Shown: positions 3,398 to 63,239 of the stretch, piece after piece | Numbering within the stretch: the stretch's first letter is position 1 | Layout of the letters: every line of letters starts with the position of its first letter | From: an uncultured virus (IMG/VR IMGVR_UViG_3300046808_000578) | Taxonomy: Duplodnaviria > Heunggongvirae > Uroviricota > Caudoviricetes | DNA length: 64,000 nt | Strand: one strand, 5' to 3' | Virus record (IMG/VR): IMGVR_UViG_3300046808_000578 | Position numbers and translations under genes: made by a program | Notes under the pieces: model-generated | Databases searched by the model: none | What the model saw: only the letters and a program-made list of their open reading frames with translations | What the model was told of the DNA's origin: nothing

Positions 3398-3694
3398 ATG
3401 ATTATTACACCTACATACAGTCTGAATTTGCAGGATGCCTATCAGATACTGAACCGCTCCGAGGCGGTGATAGTGGAACGTGAGTTCCTCTCCCGGATAT
3501 ACCTATCCCCTCTTACTGGGGATTCAACCACCGCGTTCCTCGTTGTGATGGGACATGGGAGTGACGGGGAAGAATATTGTTTCGAGTTCACGGAAGAAGA
3601 CAACCAAGTGTGCCGTGTGGAGGGCACTGGTGTGGTACTGCGGGCCACATCGGGAGCTGAAGTCGAGTTAGTCCCCCTCTGCATGGCCCTCTAA
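3398..3694 (+). CDS. hypothetical phage protein
   Basis: Starts 3 nt after previous stop. Confidence 0.6.
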   Translation: MIITPTYSLNLQDAYQILNRSEAVIVEREFLSRIYLSPLTGDSTTAFLVVMGHGSDGEEYCFEFTEEDNQVCRVEGTGVVLRATSGAEVELVPLCMAL

Positions 3695-3818
3695 ACCCTA
3701 CACGCACCACCAAGCTGGAAGTGGTCTGAGAGTGTAGCCCCCGTGCCCTGCAATGCCTATCCGGGTTGCAGGGTATCGGGCTGTATTCAAGACAGCGACA
3801 AACAACAACACACCAAGT

Positions 3819-4535
3819 ATGAAACGCCAACACATCATCGGAGTCTCGTCAGCAAAAACGGAAAAGGGAGAAGCCCTCGGGTACCTCACAGGTATCTGCT
3901 ACCTCTCGCCTGAGAAGACGGCAGAAATCCCCGGGCTCAACGTCTGCCCATGGGCAGGCAACTGCAAAGCTGTGTGCCTCAACACGGCAGGGCGCGGGGC
4001 TTTCTCCTCCGTGCAAAAAGGACGCCGCAGAAAGACGTCGCTGTGGGCCACCGACAAGGAAGAGTTCCTCCGGAACGCTGCGCTCGACATCAAGTCCATC
4101 GTCCGCAAGGCAAAGCGGGAGGGCCTGAAGCCCTGCATCAGGATGGACGGAACCTCGGACATCGGCATCGCCTTGACCCGTGGCAAGGATGGCAAGCGTC
4201 TCGTCGATATGTTCCCGGACGTGCAGTTCTACGACTACACCAAATCGTTTGCCCGGATGATCAGGTTCCTTACCGGGACGCTGCCGAAAAACTACCATCT
4301 CACGTTCTCCCACGACGGGGTGACCAACTACAGCGATTGTAAAACCGTGTTGGCGATGGGTGGAAACGTGGCGGTCGTCTTCCGCAAGAAGATCCCCACC
4401 GAATGGGCTGTGACACAGGTCATTGACGGGGACGCCTCCGACCTGCGGTTCCTTGATCCTCAAGGCGGCTACTTCGTCGGCCTCAAGGCCAAGGGCAAAG
4501 CCAAGAAGGACATCTCTGGTTTTGTTGTTGGTTGA
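3819..4535 (+). CDS. GP88-like protein (radical-SAM-like Cys motif)
   Basis: CPWAGNCKAVCLNTAGRG, IRMDGTSD, VQFYDYTK, NYHLTFS, DGDASDLRFLD motifs; C/A-rich leader before ATG 3819. Confidence 0.8.
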   Translation: MKRQHIIGVSSAKTEKGEALGYLTGICYLSPEKTAEIPGLNVCPWAGNCKAVCLNTAGRGAFSSVQKGRRRKTSLWATDKEEFLRNAALDIKSIVRKAKREGLKPCIRMDGTSDIGIALTRGKDGKRLVDMFPDVQFYDYTKSFARMIRFLTGTLPKNYHLTFSHDGVTNYSDCKTVLAMGGNVAVVFRKKIPTEWAVTQVIDGDASDLRFLDPQGGYFVGLKAKGKAKKDISGFVVG

Positions 4536-4796
4536 CGTGTTGTAGTAACATGAATGCAGACAACATCCGCATCCCTGAAGGGGTGTATCACTACACGAGT
4601 TTCGGAAAGAAAGGGCTACAGCTACTTAGAGACGTTAACGGGTATGCATATACCACCGCCGAGGGGTGGTTAAAAGCTACCGTGGATATGGACGACGAGA
4701 TGGACGAGGAGCTCGCCATCAAGCTTGCAATCCAAACCGAAAACGATATTCGTGAAATCGTAGCTCAACGCATACAACAAAAGAATAATAAATAAT

Positions 4797-5111
4797 ATGT
4801 ACGTATCAATCAACGGTGAACCATTTTCGGAAGTCGCCTCACTCCACAAAACATTCATCCCTGAACCCCTGCTACCCGGTGAAGATGAATGCCTGATCGC
4901 TCTGCTACCGCTACCTACTGACACTGTTGTGCTTACCGCTGTGGATGACGACGAGGTGGAGCACATTCTCCGCTGTGCTACAGCCCGTGGCGTTGCCCAC
5001 GACGACATCGACTGGTGCGTGGTGGATCGGGAGCACATGGAGGACATCATCATGGCGCATCTGCGTGCGTATCGTGGAGAGGAACTCGATCGTGTCTTAG
5101 AGCAACTCTAA
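4797..5111 (+). CDS. hypothetical acidic protein
   Basis: ORF in packed + strand operon. Confidence 0.6.
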   Translation: MYVSINGEPFSEVASLHKTFIPEPLLPGEDECLIALLPLPTDTVVLTAVDDDEVEHILRCATARGVAHDDIDWCVVDREHMEDIIMAHLRAYRGEELDRVLEQL

Positions 5112-5121
5112 TAACAAACAC

Positions 5122-5610
5122 ATGGAAAAACTGAAGGTCTACGTGTACCCAGACTGGCTCTATTCTACCCGCACGGACGTCAGCAAGAAGCTTCTAACCT
5201 CGTGCCGTAGTCGTGCACACGCGGGTACATTCGCCAACGCTATGCAGCACTGGGCACTGGATGAGTTGAAGTCTCACCTCGTAGCGTGTCCACCAATCGC
5301 CGACACCTACGCTGAACTTCTAAACCACATACTGGTACCACCGAAAGCTCCGTTCCGTGGCCGGGGTTACGAGCGCATCGAGCTCCATGCCAGATCCGAT
5401 TGGGAAGTTTACTGGGCGGGCTACTCAGACTGGCAGGCTTTTCAAAAAGTAATGGGACTCATGACGGAGCTTAAGCACATCGAACCTGAGGATAAGACCG
5501 ATAAGAAAAACAAGACGAAGTCCAATCTCGTTGTCATGAGCCCGGCTGCGTACATCATGCTCAATCGGTTTCGTTCAGACTTTGAGGCGTTCGCGTTGTT
5601 CGCTTCTTAA
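5122..5610 (+). CDS. hypothetical protein
   Basis: 162 aa ORF preceded by ACAAACAC leader. Confidence 0.65.
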   Translation: MEKLKVYVYPDWLYSTRTDVSKKLLTSCRSRAHAGTFANAMQHWALDELKSHLVACPPIADTYAELLNHILVPPKAPFRGRGYERIELHARSDWEVYWAGYSDWQAFQKVMGLMTELKHIEPEDKTDKKNKTKSNLVVMSPAAYIMLNRFRSDFEAFALFAS

Positions 5611-5838
5611 ATCCTTGAACCCTGAAGCCCTGACGCTAGGACTAAAGGTATATGGCAAGGGATCCAAAGCTACACGAGAAACATGTAGAGCGAATCAAGG
5701 ACGAGGTATCTGGGATATCCGAACGAGAGTCTGCGTGGTGGAAGCATACCCAGAACCTTTGTTCCTCGGTTAGCCGTGCCTGCGACAAGTGGTTCGAGCG
5801 ACGGGGATTCCCACGGTTAGAGTTTAACTGCTACGAAT

Positions 5839-7050: not shown

Positions 7051-7350
7051 ATGAACAACATGAACAGCGTAACAATAAATGGAGTAGAGTATCTGCCGAA
7101 GTCAGAAGTCAAAGAAATCGGAGAGGTCCGAATCATTGTCGCTGACCGAGGCTGGGTCTTCGTTGGAGCCTGCACAGACAACGAGGATGGCAGCGTAACA
7201 ATCAAGAACGCCAAGAATATTCGACGCTGGGGTACCACAAAGGGGCTTGGCGAGTTGGCGGCTGGCCCCACCAAGGACACTGTTGCCGACCACTATGGCA
7301 CAGTTCGCACCACTCCAATCGTAACCATCGCTGTTGAGCGGGGTTGGTAG
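7051..7350 (+). CDS. conserved phage protein (DUF6948-like)
   Basis: IIVADRGWVFVG...NAKNIRRWGTTKGLGELA pattern; followed by Gly-Asp/Tyr-rich ORFs. Confidence 0.7.
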   Translation: MNNMNSVTINGVEYLPKSEVKEIGEVRIIVADRGWVFVGACTDNEDGSVTIKNAKNIRRWGTTKGLGELAAGPTKDTVADHYGTVRTTPIVTIAVERGW

Positions 7351-7364
7351 AAGATGACCATGAC

Positions 7365-7397
7365 AAGCCCTCTCCCAATTTCGGGAGGGGGCTTTTT
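7365..7397 (+). terminator. Rho-independent terminator
   Basis: AAGCCCTCTCCC-AATTTC-GGGAGGGGGCTT stem-loop with T tract. Confidence 0.8.
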
Positions 7398-7407
7398 GGG
7401 TTACAAT

Positions 7408-7530
7408 ATGACTATCAATCTGACTGAGAAGAATGGGTATGGGTATGAGAATGGGGATGGTGGATATGGGTTTGGGTATGGGAATGTATATTGGAATGGA
7501 TATGGGGATGGGGATGTGTATGAACGATGA
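7408..7530 (+). CDS. 40-aa Gly/Tyr/Asn-rich peptide (not in ORF track)
   Basis: MTINLTEKNGYGYENGDGGYGFGYGNVYWNGYGDGDVYER. Confidence 0.5.
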   Translation: MTINLTEKNGYGYENGDGGYGFGYGNVYWNGYGDGDVYER

Positions 7531-7681
7531 TGGAGACGGCTACAACGGGGCGGAAGGAGATGGCATCGGTGACGGTTACTGGTGCGGTGATGGTGATGGA
7601 TCTGGAGAGGGGTTCGGTTGGGGTGTCGGTGCGGGAGACGGAGATCGATTCGGAGACGGATGTAATGAAAATGCAAACTAA
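7520..7681 (+). CDS. Gly/Asp-rich low-complexity peptide
   Basis: MNDDGDGYNGAEGDGIGDGYWCGDGDG...; overlaps previous peptide ORF. Confidence 0.5.
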   Translation: MNDDGDGYNGAEGDGIGDGYWCGDGDGSGEGFGWGVGAGDGDRFGDGCNENAN

Positions 7682-7694
7682 GCAGAATTAATAT

Positions 7695-8237
7695 ATGAAC
7701 AAAACAAAATACAACATGGAACAGCTAGAAGCCCTAGTAGTCAACTGGGCGAAAGAACGGAAGATCATTCCGAATGCCACGTCGGAAAGTCAGTTGCTCA
7801 AAGCGGTGTCTGAGATGGGCGAACTGGCGGACGCTACCCTGAAAGGGCAGGACGCGGAGATGCAGGATGCAATCGGAGATGTGGTCGTCTGCTTGATCAA
7901 CCTGTGCGCCCTATACGAAGGGTGGGCTTTCTATACCTACGTATACATGCTCAATTCACTGGATTACGAATGGAGATCGCACCTGCGTTTCTCCACCCCC
8001 GGCGCTCAAGTAACCGCAGCGGTCAGCGAAATGGGTAAGGTTGCGGGCTACCACGTGAACGGTTTGTACATGGGTATGGTTGATCCAATCGGAGACGTCA
8101 CTGTTTGCCTACACAATTTGTGTATCCTGAAAGGGTGGACGTTGGAGGAATGCGTGGAGAAAGCATGGGAGCAGATCAAGGACAGGAAAGGGACGTTGCT
8201 TGAAAACGGGTGCTTTGTGAAGGAGGAAGCGAAATGA
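7695..8237 (+). CDS. MazG-like all-alpha NTP pyrophosphohydrolase with internal duplication
   Basis: KAVSEMGELAD...DAIGDVVVCL, then AAVSEMGKVA...DPIGDVTVCL; C-terminal IKDRKG...FVKE. Confidence 0.8.
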   Translation: MNKTKYNMEQLEALVVNWAKERKIIPNATSESQLLKAVSEMGELADATLKGQDAEMQDAIGDVVVCLINLCALYEGWAFYTYVYMLNSLDYEWRSHLRFSTPGAQVTAAVSEMGKVAGYHVNGLYMGMVDPIGDVTVCLHNLCILKGWTLEECVEKAWEQIKDRKGTLLENGCFVKEEAK

Positions 8238-8506
8238 GTGACGACGAAATCAACAAAGCGATTAACGAAGCGTGTGGATGGGATCACAATCCTGTTAACT
8301 GTGGAGGTTCGGATTTTTGTTCAGACCTCAATGCAATGCATGAGGCGGAGAAGTTTTTGTTTCGTGAAAAAATGGCTCACCGTTATTTTTTGTTTTTAAC
8401 AGATTTCTGGAGAGGCAATAAATCAAATTACTGCTTCCATTCAACCGCACGCCAACGTGCAGAGGCGTTTTTAAGGACACTGGGAAAATGGGAGGAGGCG
8501 AAATGA
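8234..8506 (+). CDS. phage ABA-sandwich/BC1872-like protein, paralog 1
   Basis: DDEINKAI...DLNAMHEAE...STARQRAEAFLRT; ATGA overlap with GGAGG upstream. Confidence 0.7.
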   Translation: MSDDEINKAINEACGWDHNPVNCGGSDFCSDLNAMHEAEKFLFREKMAHRYFLFLTDFWRGNKSNYCFHSTARQRAEAFLRTLGKWEEAK

Positions 8507-8823
8507 CTGACGAGGAAATAAACGAAGCGATTGCTGAGATTTGTGGAATTTGTCACTCAGACAAGCACGGTCTTCTATACAAAACAAATACAGGCTGGGT
8601 GCGTGACTGCCCTGATTACTGCAATGACCTAAACGCAATGCACGAGGTTGAGGAGCAAATGGACGAAATAGACTGGGTGTTTTTTATGAATGAGTTGTCA
8701 ACTTTGGTTCGATTACCAAAACAGGCTGAAGTGCAAATTAAACAATTTGTTCACTCCACCGCACGTCAACGCGCAGAGGCTTTTTTGCGAACTATTGGAA
8801 AATGGAAGGAGGAAGCGAAATGA
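8503..8823 (+). CDS. phage ABA-sandwich/BC1872-like protein, paralog 2
   Basis: DEEINEAI...PDYCNDLNAMHEVE...STARQRAEAFLRT. Confidence 0.7.
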   Translation: MTDEEINEAIAEICGICHSDKHGLLYKTNTGWVRDCPDYCNDLNAMHEVEEQMDEIDWVFFMNELSTLVRLPKQAEVQIKQFVHSTARQRAEAFLRTIGKWKEEAK

Positions 8824-9485
8824 GTGACGCAATGCTTCACGGCATCCTTCAGATGCCACCAGAGCTTTGGTCTAACGACCAGATAGATATCTTGCAACGG
8901 CACGGAAGGTATTTGGAAGCGTTTAAAAGAATCATGGAGCTTGAGCGCGAGCGTGATGAGGCGAGGAGGGAGCGGGATGAGGCACTGAAAGAGTGCGTTC
9001 TGGCTCAAGTTGGTTGGAGCGAAGCTCTAAAACAGCGTGATGAGGCGAGGAGGGAGCGTGACGAGTTTAGAAAAAACTCTTTGGCTCTGGTCGAAGAGTT
9101 GAAAAAAAGCGTGATTCGCCTTGCGAAAGAGCGGGACGAGGCACTGGAATCGCTTTCCAATGTGCGAAGAGAGCTTGTCGCATCCAACCGAGGGGCCGAG
9201 ACAAATGCGAAGGTGAACCAAGGGCTTTGCGCCCGACTCACTGAAGCCGAACGTGAGCGCGAGGAGGCGAGCAGTGAGTTGGTTGCGGTATTGAAAAGGC
9301 GTAGGTGGAAAGAAGATCTGCAGATAGCCTTTGTGTTGGTTTTCATTTGTATGGTGGCAGCACTGTGCATAAGCACTTCGCGACACGAAGCACTTAAAAA
9401 GGAGGCAGTGCAACGCGGTTACGCGGAGTTCGCCGCTAACGCCGATGGAGCGTTAATTTGGAGATGGAAGGAGGAAGTGAAATGA
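8820..9485 (+). CDS. coiled-coil (ERDEAR repeat) protein with C-terminal TM segment
   Basis: ERDEAR repeats; hydrophobic IAFVLVFICMVAALCI. Confidence 0.7.
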   Translation: MSDAMLHGILQMPPELWSNDQIDILQRHGRYLEAFKRIMELERERDEARRERDEALKECVLAQVGWSEALKQRDEARRERDEFRKNSLALVEELKKSVIRLAKERDEALESLSNVRRELVASNRGAETNAKVNQGLCARLTEAEREREEASSELVAVLKRRRWKEDLQIAFVLVFICMVAALCISTSRHEALKKEAVQRGYAEFAANADGALIWRWKEEVK

Positions 9486-9670
9486 ACATACCTCTGCATG
9501 TTGGGAAAATCCAAATAGAGGTCACGCTTTCGGAAGAGACTCTGAAAGAGCTTTTTGCGGCAATTGCTTTGCAAAAGCTAATGCCACAGCAGCAGGTTGC
9601 CGACTATGTGACTTCTGCAAGAGAACTTGCCGCCGCGATGATGAAGGCACGGAAGGAGGACTCGAAATGA
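9482..9670 (+). CDS. hypothetical protein
   Basis: Bounded by the repeated GGAGG..GAAATGA junction on both sides. Confidence 0.65.
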   Translation: MNIPLHVGKIQIEVTLSEETLKELFAAIALQKLMPQQQVADYVTSARELAAAMMKARKEDSK

Positions 9671-10032
9671 GTGAGACACCTACACCGGAGACGGATGAAA
9701 TTAACCTTCTGCTTGAGATGCTTTGGGAATGGTTCCTAGAGCAGCGAGACGCGGCGAGGAGGGATCGAGACGAGGCGCGGGAAGAACTTACCCGTGTGCG
9801 AAAGGAGCTTGTGTCTGCAAACCGCGGTGCCGAGACAAATGCGAAGGTGAACCAAGGGCTTTGCGCCCGATTGGCTGAAGCTGAACGCGAGCGGGATGAG
9901 GCGAGGCGCGAGCGGGATGAGTTGTTGCAAAGGCTTTCACTTTGGGAAGGCGCGGTAATGCGGATGAAAAAGCAACTCAGCTTTGCTCCGCCGTTTCATC
10001 AAGGCATGGAGTCACAGGAGGAAGCGAAATGA
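9667..10032 (+). CDS. coiled-coil (ERDEAR repeat) protein
   Basis: Shares NRGAETNAKVNQGLCARL block with 8820-9485. Confidence 0.7.
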   Translation: MSETPTPETDEINLLLEMLWEWFLEQRDAARRDRDEAREELTRVRKELVSANRGAETNAKVNQGLCARLAEAERERDEARRERDELLQRLSLWEGAVMRMKKQLSFAPPFHQGMESQEEAK

Positions 10033-10415
10033 GTGAGTTACTACAGAAAATGACGAATGAACTTCACCTAGACGTGGAGTACCTACATAAAAAGCTGGAG
10101 GAATGTGTGTCCATCGCGGCGCGGATCGCACGATACGCAGAGCTTGAACGGCACCGAGTGATCAAAAGCGGGGAAGGTTTATCCCCAAAACACGCCGAGT
10201 TGTTTGAACTCATGCGCGAGTACAACGCGATGATGGAACGTAACGGCGGGAGGTACTACTACGACGAAGGTTACCGGGATGGACTCACGGCACTACGCAT
10301 GCGCGGCGGATCCCGAGGTGCCGAATGGAACGCGGAAGCCAAGCACCTTCGATGCACCGACAGGAGAGACTACATCGAAGGATTCAACGACGCACTGGAC
10401 AACGGAGTAGCATGA
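10029..10415 (+). CDS. hypothetical protein
   Basis: Starts at the last repeated junction; YDEGYRDG/YIEGFND motifs. Confidence 0.65.
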   Translation: MSELLQKMTNELHLDVEYLHKKLEECVSIAARIARYAELERHRVIKSGEGLSPKHAELFELMREYNAMMERNGGRYYYDEGYRDGLTALRMRGGSRGAEWNAEAKHLRCTDRRDYIEGFNDALDNGVA

Positions 10416-10559
10416 ATCCAAGTAACGCTCAACAAATGTCAAAGCTGGAAATTCACCTGCCGGATGGTAGCTCCGCAACCGTCTGTGTACCGTTCCACTC
10501 CGACATCACCAAGTACATCGAAGCCGTCAGGCAACTCCTCGGCTTTGTAGGTTTCCACC

Positions 10560-10859
10560 ATGACAACATCAACGCCTATCTGGGCGACAACTGAGCCTAC
10601 CGCAGTCTCAGAAACAGGCGTTTCATGGTGGCTACTCCCAGACCTCACCAAATACGCCACCGCCCCAGACTCTCACGGTATTGCACTGGAGGACGTGGTA
10701 GTCTACGGACTCAAGGAACGCACCGGAGAGTACTGGTACATGGTTGCAGAAAGATCCGGTAAATCTTTACACGCAACAAAATCAACGCATGATGTGTTGG
10801 TTTACATCGATAAACTAAAAACATTTGAACAGTATGAACACAAGCGCAGAAAAGGTTAA
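10560..10859 (+). CDS. hypothetical protein
   Basis: ORF near the end of the + strand operon. Confidence 0.5.
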   Translation: MTTSTPIWATTEPTAVSETGVSWWLLPDLTKYATAPDSHGIALEDVVVYGLKERTGEYWYMVAERSGKSLHATKSTHDVLVYIDKLKTFEQYEHKRRKG

Positions 10860-10945
10860 GCAGATAACCTTAGAGGAAATCGACCGCTCTATCGCTACGA
10901 GCAGGTTCTGGGGTAAAGACGAGGTCTACAGTTACCTTACCGAAC

Positions 10946-11557
10946 TCAAGCAGAGGATTGAGTACCGCCTTCGGGATTCTTCCAGCACGCTTCCGGAAAC
11001 TGCATCTTCTCGCTGACGCCTTTGTGCAGGACGTCCAAAGGGACGTGCACCTGCGCTCGATTGCTACAGCCGCACACGTTGCAGCCCTTGAGCTTCTCGT
11101 CGTACCCTGTAGCCCTGTCGCCCAGAAACTCGGTAATCTCACGCACGATATTCTGGCACGCCGAGCACCCTGCAACTTCTACGTTGTGAGGGCAGGCAGC
11201 GCAGATAGCGGCACGGCGATCGGCTTCTTCTTGCGAAACCCATTCACGCTTCGGCAACCATGCCGTGAGCACCTTGAGGAAGTTGACCACATCGCCGAAA
11301 CCTACCTGTCGAGTAACGGTTCCATCCTCATTTACAGGCTGGCACCACCTATCCGACAGCTTCATGAGTTCGCAGACTTCGTTCTCGAACTCTTTCTCCC
11401 AACCAATGTTGCACGGGATCCCGTTTGCAAGTCTGTGCAAACGGACCTTCTGCAGCAGATCTGACCACACAATCGCCCGGATCACATAGCCCGTCTCCGG
11501 CTGCTTATAAACCCACGAGCGGTTCGGAGTCTGCATCTTATTAACAATATGGAACAT
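10946..11557 (-). CDS. Cys-rich hypothetical protein, last gene of the late operon
   Basis: RAAICAACPHN...CSAC...CNVCGC...CWK. Confidence 0.75.
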   Translation of the reverse strand: MFHIVNKMQTPNRSWVYKQPETGYVIRAIVWSDLLQKVRLHRLANGIPCNIGWEKEFENEVCELMKLSDRWCQPVNEDGTVTRQVGFGDVVNFLKVLTAWLPKREWVSQEEADRRAAICAACPHNVEVAGCSACQNIVREITEFLGDRATGYDEKLKGCNVCGCSNRAQVHVPLDVLHKGVSEKMQFPEACWKNPEGGTQSSA

Positions 11558-52029: not shown

Positions 52030-52773
52030 ATGGCCATCACATCGTTCAAAAAAGCAACCGTTGAAGTAGACGCGGAAGTTGTTTCGCAGGAAACAGCCGT
52101 CGCAAAAACTCCAGAGCCGACTCCATCCACCGCATTGGTGGTGCAGCAATCCACAGCAAACAACGGGATCGAGGGGGAGATTTCTCGGCACGACATCAAG
52201 CTGCCGCGCATCAACCTCGTGCAGAAGGTCGGAGATCTGAGCAACCTCTTCACACCGGGGATGTTCCTCTTCAACAAAGAAGTCGTCCTCTCAAACGGTA
52301 AGACTCCGTTTCAAACCACCGTTCTTCGTCTGAAAAAGCAGTACCAGCAAGATCTGCCGTACGGCTCAGAAGATATGCCACAGTCGTACGATACCGCTGA
52401 AGAAGTCATTTCTTCAGGTGGCTCCCTCAAATACGGTGATGACAACTACTACAAGGAGATTGCCCACGTTCAGTTGGCGATCGAGAAACCCTCTGACTGC
52501 CCTGAGGAACTGGAAGGGTTGTTCCCACACGAACTGAACGACAAGCAGTACGGAGTGGCGATCTGGACTCTCACAGGATCCGCATTCACTTCCGCTGGGA
52601 AAACGCTGATCACCGCAGGGTACACGCTGCTAAAAGCAGGTCTTCACCATGGGAAATTCTCGGTCACCAGCGAGATCAAGAAGAACGCCAAGAACTCGTG
52701 GTTTGCTCCAGTACTTAAGTTCGCTGGTAAACATACCCCGGAAGAAATCGCGTTCTTTGAATCCATCAAGTAA
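52030..52773 (+). CDS. putative single-stranded DNA-binding protein
   Basis: DIKLPRINLVQ...KNSWFAP pattern; between nuclease and polymerase. Confidence 0.6.
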   Translation: MAITSFKKATVEVDAEVVSQETAVAKTPEPTPSTALVVQQSTANNGIEGEISRHDIKLPRINLVQKVGDLSNLFTPGMFLFNKEVVLSNGKTPFQTTVLRLKKQYQQDLPYGSEDMPQSYDTAEEVISSGGSLKYGDDNYYKEIAHVQLAIEKPSDCPEELEGLFPHELNDKQYGVAIWTLTGSAFTSAGKTLITAGYTLLKAGLHHGKFSVTSEIKKNAKNSWFAPVLKFAGKHTPEEIAFFESIK

Positions 52774-56818: not shown

Positions 56819-57099
56819 TGCAGGTAAATACCCGGTGGAACCACACCGTAAAACCATCCGTATTTGAAGTCGTCAAAGGAGGAGCCGTACTTCACAGCGG
56901 ATCTTACAAGGACGGGGTACGCATCTACGAGGTAGAGCTCCGCAAAGAGCGGTTCAGGAACAGCCTGTTCTGTCTTGTCTGCGGCACCCCATTCCAAATG
57001 CCGAAGTACTGGATTAAATTAACATGTTCTCCGAAATGCAGGGCGAAGCATGTCTCTAATCTGATAACAGGTATACCGTTTAAGAAAGCCTACAAGTAA
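56818..57099 (+). CDS. putative zinc-finger protein
   Basis: CLVCG...TCSPKC. Confidence 0.55.
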   Translation: MQVNTRWNHTVKPSVFEVVKGGAVLHSGSYKDGVRIYEVELRKERFRNSLFCLVCGTPFQMPKYWIKLTCSPKCRAKHVSNLITGIPFKKAYK

Positions 57100-57108
57100 C
57101 ACAACGCA

Positions 57109-59241
57109 ATGCAAGTTCACACACTACCAAATCTGGTTTCGCAGACAGCGGGGAAAACAACGACCCCTATTCAGGCGAACCCAAGACCTACGTTAGCAAA
57201 TAAAGAAGCGTACCGCAAATGGTGTATTAACGCCAATACTCAGCACGTATTCTACTCCGCATGGGAAGGCGTAAACCCCGGATTGCGGATCAGCAAAGCA
57301 AACCCGGCAAAACTGCTGCACGGGTTCGTGGCAGACTACGATGCTGACGTGACCGACCAGATGATCCTAGACGTGGCAAACAGTGGTGGAATCCTTCCCA
57401 CATGGAGCTCGCGCACGTTCTCCGGAGGGGCTCGACTCATCTGGGAGTTCGAGGAACCCCTGCTCATGGACAACCACATCCTTGCGGAACGGTTCATGAA
57501 GACCTTGGTCAAGGAACTGAAGGTCAAAAAGCTGCTTCCCGGGTTCGACGAATCCTCAATGGAGAGCAGTCAATACTTTGAGGCAGGCACGAACTGGGCT
57601 GCTGTAGCTTCAGGGATGCCCATTCCCGTGGATTTGGTGGGTTTGTGGACCCTAGACAGCGCAACAGGCAAAATCGCGCAGCAGGGAGGCACCGAGATCC
57701 CAATCGAGGAGATCGCCGCAGAGGTCGAACGGCAATTCCCGGGACGGTGGGTGGGTGACTTTGTCGTCGGAGCCCGGGGACCCTTGTACTGGGTACCGGA
57801 TGGAGTGCAAAGAGTCGGCTGTCAGGTCGGTGATTTTGGAATGATCTGCTACAGTAGCCGGGCAGACGCGGGTTTTCTCCCGTGGGATAAGATACTTGGT
57901 AAATCCTTCGTACAGAAATGGGAGGCAAAGCACATCGGGGGCTACATCGAGAACATGTGGTACGATGGGAAGATGTACTGGTGGAAGGTGGACGATGTCT
58001 GGGTACCCCGGAACAAGGACGACTCCATGATGCACCTCGCAAACCACGGGGTTTCGGTGAAAACCAACGGCAAAGAGGTCATTTCACGGGCAGGCAAGAT
58101 CCTTTGTGGGGTGCAGGACGTGCGGAAGGTGGACTACGCCGCCCCGTTGCTGTTTGAAAGGAACGAGATCGTCGATATCAACGGAGAAAAGGTACTGAAC
58201 ATCGGTCGCCGTGAGGCCCTGATGGAGGCAAACGTGGCGGACCCCGAAAATACCGCGCATTTCCCATGGATCTGGGAGTTTATTTCACGAATCTTCGTAC
58301 AATCTGACGGAGATAACTCGCAGATGGACTATTTTCTCGCATGGTTTCAGCGTTTATGGGTCTCGGCGAGGAACAAACAGCTCTTCCAAGGGCAAATGCT
58401 GGTACTGGCCGGGTCGGCTGGACAGGGCAAAACCTTCATGAGCAGGTGCATCATCGGAGCCGCCTTGGGTGGGAGTGTGGACGCGAGCGACATCCTCCAA
58501 GGAAAGACGAATTTCAATAAGCAAGCTGCCGAAACATGTATATGGAGGGTCGATGACGCCGCCGGGGCAACGTCTAGGAACGATGCCCTGAAGTTCGGAG
58601 ACACGTTAAAGCGGCACGTGGCAAACCCGATCGCGGTCTACCACCCAAAGTTCCGGGACGCAGTCGAATTCCCGTGGAGAGGGCGTATCGTACTGACCTG
58701 CAACACAGATCCGAACTCGCTGGCGATCCTGCCGAGCCTCGACAACACGTTCGAGGACAAGATCATGATGCTCAAGTTCGGGGACTGGATCCCTTCGTTC
58801 AAGACAAGCCATGAGCACGAGGCAATGGTGGCCAACGAGCTCCCCTTCTTCCTTGCATGGCTAAAGCAGTGGCAACCCCCGGCATACGTGATGGGGCAAA
58901 ACAACAGGTTCGGAGTCCTGAGCTACCACCACAGGGAGCTCGTGGAAGCCTCACAGGAAGGCGACAGCGGCACGGGACTACTGGAGATCCTCGAGATGTG
59001 GAGGGAAGGAGAGGTGGAGGTGGCAAAGTGTGACCCTGAAATCCGGATATCGAGTAGCCAGCTTCTGGGTCGAATCCGAGACATGGTTTCTGGAGGGGCA
59101 GAGTTAATGAGAAATTATTCAACTATTCGGTTAGGGCGCGAATTACGAGCGATTAAGCAGAGATACAAGCCGCTTACGAAGATCAGTAAGGTTAATGGCA
59201 TCACAACATACGTGTTCGCAATGAAGGCAAAGCTCGAATAG
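57109..59241 (+). CDS. primase-helicase (N-terminal primase-like, C-terminal SF3/DUF5906-like ATPase)
   Basis: ADYD...RTFSGG; Walker A GSAGQGKT, RVDD, LTCN. Confidence 0.8.
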   Translation: MQVHTLPNLVSQTAGKTTTPIQANPRPTLANKEAYRKWCINANTQHVFYSAWEGVNPGLRISKANPAKLLHGFVADYDADVTDQMILDVANSGGILPTWSSRTFSGGARLIWEFEEPLLMDNHILAERFMKTLVKELKVKKLLPGFDESSMESSQYFEAGTNWAAVASGMPIPVDLVGLWTLDSATGKIAQQGGTEIPIEEIAAEVERQFPGRWVGDFVVGARGPLYWVPDGVQRVGCQVGDFGMICYSSRADAGFLPWDKILGKSFVQKWEAKHIGGYIENMWYDGKMYWWKVDDVWVPRNKDDSMMHLANHGVSVKTNGKEVISRAGKILCGVQDVRKVDYAAPLLFERNEIVDINGEKVLNIGRREALMEANVADPENTAHFPWIWEFISRIFVQSDGDNSQMDYFLAWFQRLWVSARNKQLFQGQMLVLAGSAGQGKTFMSRCIIGAALGGSVDASDILQGKTNFNKQAAETCIWRVDDAAGATSRNDALKFGDTLKRHVANPIAVYHPKFRDAVEFPWRGRIVLTCNTDPNSLAILPSLDNTFEDKIMMLKFGDWIPSFKTSHEHEAMVANELPFFLAWLKQWQPPAYVMGQNNRFGVLSYHHRELVEASQEGDSGTGLLEILEMWREGEVEVAKCDPEIRISSSQLLGRIRDMVSGGAELMRNYSTIRLGRELRAIKQRYKPLTKISKVNGITTYVFAMKAKLE

Positions 59242-62275: not shown

Positions 62276-62924
62276 CCCAACACGCCATGAACACAACCCC
62301 ATCGCCCACCGCATCCCGCCTCCTTGCCCTCATGGTCAAGGGGGGCCACCGGCTCACCGTACACAGCAACAGGTTCCCCCGCCGGGGGAAGCACTACGTC
62401 CACGCCGTCGCAAAGGCGGCGGGCGTCCTGTCCCCCGCACCGAGGAGGGGCGAATGAGTCGCCCGAAACCAACGCCGCAGCAGGTAGCGGAGTGGGTAGT
62501 GGACGCCCTGCTGCAAGTCTCAAACGCCCCCGAGACGGGGGATCAAGACGAGTTCCTCCGGGGACTCGTCAACCTCGGAAGTTTGGCTTGGTACCTTGCC
62601 GGGCCGGATACGAGATACATCAACGAAACTTGGAACGTAGTAATGAAAGCTTATGAGAAGTGAATTGGTAGACGAACACAACGCCGCCCTACGAAGGGCA
62701 AGGGCCCTCGCCCGGTTTGACTGGTGTCTGGACCGAGTCCTGTGGATGGGACTCGGTATGTTGGCAATGGTGATCGCGGAGATTCTGTTCCTATGATCGC
62801 CAACCTCTTCGCGTTGTCCGGCCCCATCGGGATCGCCGGACTCATCGTATTGGCAATGTGGCTCCGTGAAACCGGAGCCGCGTTACTCTGAAACCCTGAA
62901 ACCTTGATTAGAAACAAAAAACAT

Positions 62925-63239
62925 ATGGAAACACCACAAGCAATACCAACCGAACTCATGGAAAAACTCCGCGCCGCTGGCGTGGAATCCTTCACCCTCT
63001 CGTTCTGGGGAGGTTCGGACGAGGGATACCTGTACCTCGTCGGAATACCGTATGAACTGGAGAAGGCGGTCGAGGACTGGGCATGGCGGGCATACCAGTA
63101 CTCCGGTGCCGGGGACGGAGAAAACTATGGTGACGACATCACCTACAACCTCAAGGATGGAACGGTTAAGTGCTCCGACTGGTACATGGAGAGGCAAGAG
63201 GGGGACACAGAAACCCATATGCTGGAGGGGCTGGAATGA
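62925..63239 (+). CDS. DUF6878-like protein
   Basis: AAGV..FTLSFWGGSDEG pattern; adjacent to a DUF6915-like gene. Confidence 0.6.
   Translation: METPQAIPTELMEKLRAAGVESFTLSFWGGSDEGYLYLVGIPYELEKAVEDWAWRAYQYSGAGDGENYGDDITYNLKDGTVKCSDWYMERQEGDTETHMLEGLE

Follow-up and report, generated by a model that had tools for sequence, protein, structure and literature searches.

Boundary or "linker" sequences have been proposed for the joints between modules of lambdoid phages (Susskind and Botstein 1978 and Clark et al. 2001, as cited in PMC3029335), and the same source, in the parts drawn on here, reports that boundary sequences are not findable at most mosaic boundaries. The PeSL cassettes of the T4-type phages RB49/phi1, PST and nt-1 carry an intergenic promoter and a terminator stem-loop, and mini-circles have been shown for them (PMC2839356, PMC4122927). 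Termination-reinitiation coupling has been described at ATGA overlaps with the Shine-Dalgarno (SD) site inside the upstream gene (PMC6728339), and start-associated sequences in cluster K mycobacteriophages and Microbacterium cluster EF phages (PMC7302621); for these systems, too, our comparisons refer to excerpts of the published accounts. Here we describe an array of seven genes (M, A1, A2, B, C, D and E) in an uncultured tailed phage, IMG/VR record IMGVR_UViG_3300046808_000578, in which a single short coding motif joins all six successive pairs of neighbours. The window, meaning the whole stretch analysed, comprises bases 1-64000 of this 65,560-base virus record. Comparison of the sequences suggests, with a probability that we put at about 0.7, that the motif is a coding boundary sequence and likely the commonest landing site for general, homology-dependent phage recombination. 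It resembles the phage linkers in being short and placed at gene joints, at points where two phages begin or cease to be similar, and in that general recombination is proposed for both. It differs from them in that one linker stands at six successive single-gene joints, is wholly coding and recurs across unrelated backbones. In the literature searched, mostly papers outside subscription, we found no account of an array in which a wholly coding linker is repeated.

The preliminary description of this DNA had reported six consecutive ATGA overlaps set in near-identical DNA, and this observation holds. The overlaps lie on the plus strand at 8234 (junction 1, 8221-8241), 8503 (junction 2, 8490-8510), 8820 (junction 3, 8807-8827), 9482 (junction 4, 9469-9489), 9667 (junction 5, 9654-9674) and 10029 (junction 6, 10016-10036), and at all six the SD sequence GGAGG is placed 7 nucleotides (nt) before the ATG. 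The motif extends over 21-24 nt and at this identity is absent elsewhere in the window; the 21-nt junction copies are 76-100% identical to one another. Its conservation drops to about 0.4 upstream of position -16, and the array has no intergenic gaps. With up to 3 mismatches allowed, the 16-mer GGAGGAAGCGAAATGA occurs 8 times in the window, where 0.58 occurrences are expected, and none of 100 shuffles reaches 8; six of the matches are the junctions (0-2 mismatches) and the remaining two have 3 mismatches. As was also noted before, the upstream proteins end alike, in order KEEAK, WEEAK, KEEAK, KEEVK, KEDSK and QEEAK, and most downstream proteins start alike (MSD, MSE or MTD in five of six, MNI in the other). 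GGAGG is indeed rare at other starts: among 37 open reading frames (ORFs) of the genome with at least 200 amino acids, a set that contains some antisense ORFs, one has a GGAGG-led start, and that one lies inside the array. GGAGG also leads two ATGA overlaps with a different spacer, at 62454 (62444-62457) and 63236 (63224-63239), amid small genes close to the opposite end of the early region.

The exact -4 overlap with an intragenic SD at 6/6 junctions is the arrangement of termination-reinitiation pairs, and translational coupling is predicted from this geometry. Ordinary coupled pairs, as the cited excerpts describe them, share just the SD and the ATGA, whereas in the array the sharing extends to the free spacer and the codons that follow. 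The joined proteins had been called unrelated, which is only partly so: A1 (8234-8506) and A2 (8503-8823) are paralogues with 48% identity, and B (8820-9485) and D (9667-10032) have 172 nt in common at 79%. Freshwater metagenome runs contain the window, four of them being possible source runs. In possible source runs each junction falls within a single contig with zero differences, so the junctions are not assembly artefacts, and both flanks have equal depth (63-72). Short-read assembly may wrongly pair the sequences on either side of a whole shared cassette; a single 24-nt joint spanned by reads is safe from this error.

A metagenome scan with the 21-nt motif gave 30 loci. Eighteen were kept for shared cassettes; the other 12, single junctions without a shared cassette and mostly from bacterial operons, were dropped by eye. 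Together with loci L124 and L304 and the window, the 18 form a pool of 21 freshwater loci, in which letters beyond M and A-E denote cassettes that the window does not have. The order in the window is M-A-A-B-C-D-E; elsewhere it is M-C-A-D (L201), M-C-F-D (L196), M-C-G (L199), M-G-I-A-D (L124), A-F-H (L205) and M-Y-Z-C-B/D-E (L202). The 62 junctions with both flanks comprise 52 distinct joins. Partners are switched: the end of the MazG gene leads to 7 start classes in 9 junctions, that of C to 5 in 8, that of F to 6 in 7 and that of family A, to which A1 and A2 belong, to 6 in 6, several of the start classes being variants of the D family. A complete phage of 36.6 kb, G001, has nothing in common with the window except the array genes and one other gene region. 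Conversely, the window's flanks occur with a different array in L202 and in record 23 of run X8, where C stands before A. Gene order is therefore not kept among related and unrelated phages; genes are swapped and added, as the preliminary description had supposed, and also reordered. Viral scans for close relatives by flanking proteins, using 10946-11557, the long MazG and gene E, returned none, and 50,697 annotated phage records gave a single weak match of 82 nt.

Where, then, does the similarity between these loci end? Taking tracts of at least 80 nt at 90% identity or more and a motif window of 27 nt, 50 of 94 tract ends lie on the motif against 6.4 expected; collapsed by their flanks, 36 of 66 distinct ends do so, although the motif windows make up 6.6% of the length. 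From one motif to the next, cassette F (201-209 nt) is 98-100% identical in L198, L205, L210, L212 and L221, and its neighbours differ. Some cases are independent of the motif search. L202 matches the window at 92% identity over 734 nt and stops at the TGA of junction 1 (8237); a contig of run X15 matches 8226-8506 with 0 differences, stops at the junction TGA and continues into other DNA; and in record 15 of the same run the match begins at 8805, behind the end of a C-type gene. Record 23 of run X8, with C ahead of A between the window's flanks, is likewise not selected by the motif. The linker pattern is thus present, a conserved sequence at the joints of otherwise unrelated genes in several phages, with similarity starting or ending there.

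Several observations weigh against this reading. Of the 66 collapsed ends, 22 are inside genes and 8 at gene boundaries without the motif, which occupy 2.9% of the length; per site, the motif (36/64) gathers ends only about twice as often as other boundaries (8/28; p = 0.05). Because the pool loci were recruited by the motif, an alignment that stops at a gene end crosses it by construction, and since joins and loci are related, the p-values are optimistic. The freshest exchange, 9519-9948 on the plus strand, a 430-nt tract that spans junction 5 and is 99.3% identical to L304 in another backbone, has both ends inside genes. Perfect runs of at least 31 nt occur in just 27 of 1850 pool pairs, most junction pairs of the window share perfect runs of merely 7-13 nt, and no annealing protein is recognised in the window's own genome. 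The breakpoints thus coincide with the motif in more than half of the cases and not in the rest, and swapping or addition of genes at the junction, which the preliminary description had proposed, is borne out by the varying orders and the piling-up of ends but does not account for the third of ends that is intragenic. The motif is, on these tract ends, the main but not the sole exchange point. In possible source runs X1 and X2 the tract 9519-9948 has about 5-fold the depth of its flanks and is therefore also carried by a more abundant genome in those runs.

Ordinary mosaicism would read the same ends differently: illegitimate or micro-homology joins (ATGA, GGAGG) would form anywhere, selection would keep those at boundaries, and the motif would merely hitch-hike, being the initiation region in a small number of ancestral 5' ends. 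The enrichment of ends at motif-less boundaries suits this account, as does an insertion in L202 directly after the motif-less ATGA of gene E, and a 17-mer of the motif is found as one copy in bacterial operons and as several in low-GC phages that are unrelated. It fits poorly with the exact register at the joins, with one spacer version common to the unrelated genes of an array, and with cassette F being bounded exactly by two motifs in five contexts, and we consider it unlikely. The 17-mer was found in 112 viral stretches, 10 of which have near copies nearby, some of these being low-GC phages that are apparently unrelated; repeated junctions are therefore probably a general trait of small-gene clusters, as far as these sequences indicate. 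In three low-GC phages (L052, L056, L080) with no evident link to the pool, a near-identical junction is repeated before several small genes.

A question remains, is the motif shared by descent or has it arisen by convergence? The alanine codon of the tail offers a measure, its third base being free of SD, stop and start constraints. In 22 junctions picked by their peptide tail, after one exact match per searched locus was dropped, this codon is GCG in 20, compared with 0.36 for a third-base G in gene bodies. A second set was collected by protein similarity: 45 of 80 loci have a usable family A end, 28 remain after dereplication, and these hold 145 junctions. Here the spacers of non-homologous genes agree at 3.76 of 8 positions within arrays against 3.12 of 8 between arrays, a difference that none of 2000 permutations reaches, and of 29 family A ends, 21 resemble the array in which they stand. 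Arrays have dialects of the junction, EAKP (L166, L177), EVQP (L123) and EGAK (L130), and EEA endings also occur. In L222, found by its MazG, the same gene families are joined at three junctions in a row by a motif shorter by 3 nt. Since GCG is kept at a free site and the dialects are array-specific, the motif is, by this comparison, shared by descent and not by convergence. Plain MazG genes end in FVKE and some family A genes in GKW[KE]E, each followed by the stop codon, and the -4 overlap is present at 55 of 73 family A ends and 28 of 65 MazG ends; we infer that the KEEAK-type tail may have been grafted by recombination onto ends that were already SD-like (...AAGGAG). Much longer arrays, with up to about 12 successive junctions of the EAKP/GTGA dialect and with family A genes, are seen in L166 (4325-7650), L177, L168 and L138.

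These data also bear on the possibility that the C-terminal peptide KEEAK is a selected protein signal and the DNA similarity secondary. Six proteins with like ends invite this thought, which nevertheless is scarcely plausible: a peptide signal does not explain the synonymous preference for GCG, the same families elsewhere lack the tail or carry EAKP, EVQP, EGAK or EEA instead, and in the structural model the tail is the low-confidence end. A selected regulatory site, bound by a phage or host factor and akin to the start-associated sequences of actinobacteriophages, with shuffling as a by-product, has more to recommend it. Such sites are described (PMC7302621), they share with our motif unusual conservation at the ribosome-binding position of several genes, this conservation exceeds what an SD needs, and starts led by GGAGG are hardly used in the rest of the genome. 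However, the motif is limited to one tandem array and is common to unrelated backbones, one gene family has other spacers in other arrays, and several versions coexist within one array. In the excerpts cited, start-associated sequences are tied to extended elements in intergenic gaps, whereas this array is gap-less, so that an upstream extended element is missing, and its copies mark points of exchange. We therefore regard a regulatory site as an improbable explanation.

How would exchange at a coding boundary sequence proceed? In co-infecting phages, general recombination would produce a crossover within 21-25 nt of identity and swap everything downstream, with stop, ribosome-binding site and start predicted to stay intact; since the products keep these signals, they are expected to be translated and tolerated. 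Phage annealing proteins of the Sak4 or RecT type or the host RecA are candidate agents, and a dedicated recombinase would not be needed. Repeated exchange would homogenise the spacer and could graft the EAK tail onto new genes with a natural end ...AAGGAG, and the same process may use longer intragenic homologies such as coiled-coil repeats and shared N-termini. Perfect runs of identity reach 25 nt in the window and at least 23 nt in 254 of the 1850 pool pairs; the minimum homology given in the cited part of PMC3945230 is 23-27 bp for Red-beta and 31-34 for RecA. G001 encodes an AAA_24 protein (E 4.5e-43), and AAA_24 is matched at E 0.001 in 2 of 5 array-bearing records; we take this family to include Sak4. 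The position after a helicase-nuclease gene often holds a DNA-binding or annealing protein. The 247-amino-acid ORF at that place in the window (52030-52773) was considered as an annealing protein and set aside, as Atlas gives only hypothetical clusters for it.

Integron cassettes consist of one gene each, in shuffled order, with a foldable attC-like site and an adjacent integrase. An integron-like system, in which the tyrosine recombinase of the phage (47358-48476) uses the motif to excise and insert cassettes, would be in keeping with cassettes of one gene and one site, with the presence of the recombinase in the window, and with a permuted order, C standing before A or B in L201, L202 and X8 and after them in the window. 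Here, however, the recombinase is 37 kb from the array, many ends are intragenic, and the B/C order change is accounted for by exchanges through an internal repeat (see below) and the L304 tract. An integrase match is absent from all five other array-bearing records, two of them 98-100% complete, and the complete G001 lacks a tyrosine recombinase. Nine folds of junctions (six bottom and three top strands) gave z from -1.0 to +1.5 and no stable hairpin on either strand. Neither a promoter nor a terminator-like site is found at the junctions; the one promoter-like site in 7300-11100 is at 10766, with 2.7 expected. A site-specific route is thus unlikely, given records without integrase and a junction without hairpin, promoter or terminator, and the integron-like version of it we hold to be very improbable. 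The earlier idea of a self-contained cassette system is not supported either: cassettes are common to unrelated backbones, a third of tract ends are intragenic, and the complete array-bearing phage and the junction lack, respectively, tyrosine recombinase and hairpin. As with the PeSLs in the excerpts cited, a repeated expression signal flanks small, uncharacterised non-core genes whose gain, loss or replacement takes place there, and recombination would be between copies, with no dedicated recombinase identified. Unlike them, the motif is a translation signal and has neither a sigma-70-like promoter nor a terminator stem-loop. No excised circles are evident among the joints listed in contigs of 8 runs, where contigs drop rare forms.

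A second homology hub is, judging from its sequence, the internal repeat of 172 nt on the plus strand, with copy 1 at 9129-9300 in B and copy 2 at 9763-9934 in D (79% identity); a fusion of a B start to a D end in L202 crosses it. Gene B (221 amino acids) is a chimera, composed of a B-type start, ERERDEARR coiled-coil repeats, the block common with D, a hydrophobic stretch, and an end that is the 3' end of the relatives' 60-amino-acid cassette F. Gene D (121 amino acids) starts MSETPTPETD and has coiled-coil repeats as well. All seven genes are on the plus strand. Gene M (7695-8237) encodes a MazG-like nucleotide pyrophosphohydrolase of 180 amino acids (PHROG 1992, E 2.5e-39; Pfam MazG over cut-off), a long form with an internal duplication-like extension, and heads the array in many relatives. 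Most relatives have a MazG of 104 amino acids; this short form is also present in X8 record 23, within the window's backbone. A1 (90 amino acids) and A2 (106 amino acids) belong to family A, an uncharacterised phage family; its structural model (mean pLDDT 86.9), confident in A2 save for the C-terminal tail, has no match in the PDB at E 0.001 and matches only uncharacterised proteins from uncultured phages. Family A as NinX-like is a lead only, from Atlas (0.91). Gene C (9482-9670, 62 amino acids) is uncharacterised and has three different 5' ends among relatives; gene E (10029-10415, 128 amino acids), likewise uncharacterised, ends in a motif-less ATGA overlap (10412). None of the genes from A1 to E reaches the cut-off of a PHROG or Pfam family.

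The window encodes a family A DNA polymerase, a primase, a helicase fused to a DUF2800 nuclease, a Holliday junction resolvase, a tail fibre and an endolysin. Seven of the 16 family A relatives in species genomes are in records titled Verrucomicrobia or its families, two of these names being ones that we presume to belong there, and on these titles Verrucomicrobia is a lead to the host and nothing firmer. Just 5' of the MazG gene, 7354-7691 holds overlapping low-complexity ORFs rich in Gly, Asp and Tyr that are made of short tandem repeats and differ between runs. A strong terminator-like hairpin with a T tract lies at 7365-7394, 300 nt upstream of the array, and is followed by no consensus promoter. 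One RNA run covers three short pieces, insufficient to show transcription. In L202 (oriented 3673-5709), L124, L195, L216 and L217 the array is followed closely by homologues of window 56833-57063; in L202 and L124, compared with window 56833-59241, a primase homologue lies close downstream of it as well. The array in the window is about 46 kb from the 56833-57063 region; apparently the whole block has moved.

The array is probably a form of boundary-sequence shuffling, and it is more dynamic than a single genome reveals. A bolder version, which we offer tentatively and think rather less than even in its chances, is a self-propagating platform free of any recombinase: a 24-nt coding connector would spread by recombination and recruit genes as it overwrites their last codons, phages of one host group, though unrelated, would trade a common pool of translation-ready accessory genes defined by a connector dialect, and single-gene circles might be excised. 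It has long been asked whether homology at boundary sequences gives rise to phage mosaicism or whether selection sieves it out of random joins, and boundary sequences have seldom been found. The array supplies a countable case, in which a single linker comes with dozens of natural joins and with near-identical cassettes on unrelated backbones, and a simple construct made from it would allow the question to be put to a direct test. The look-alike ends and starts of many small phage proteins reflect the history of the DNA, that is, a shared junction, and not protein function, which matters for their annotation.

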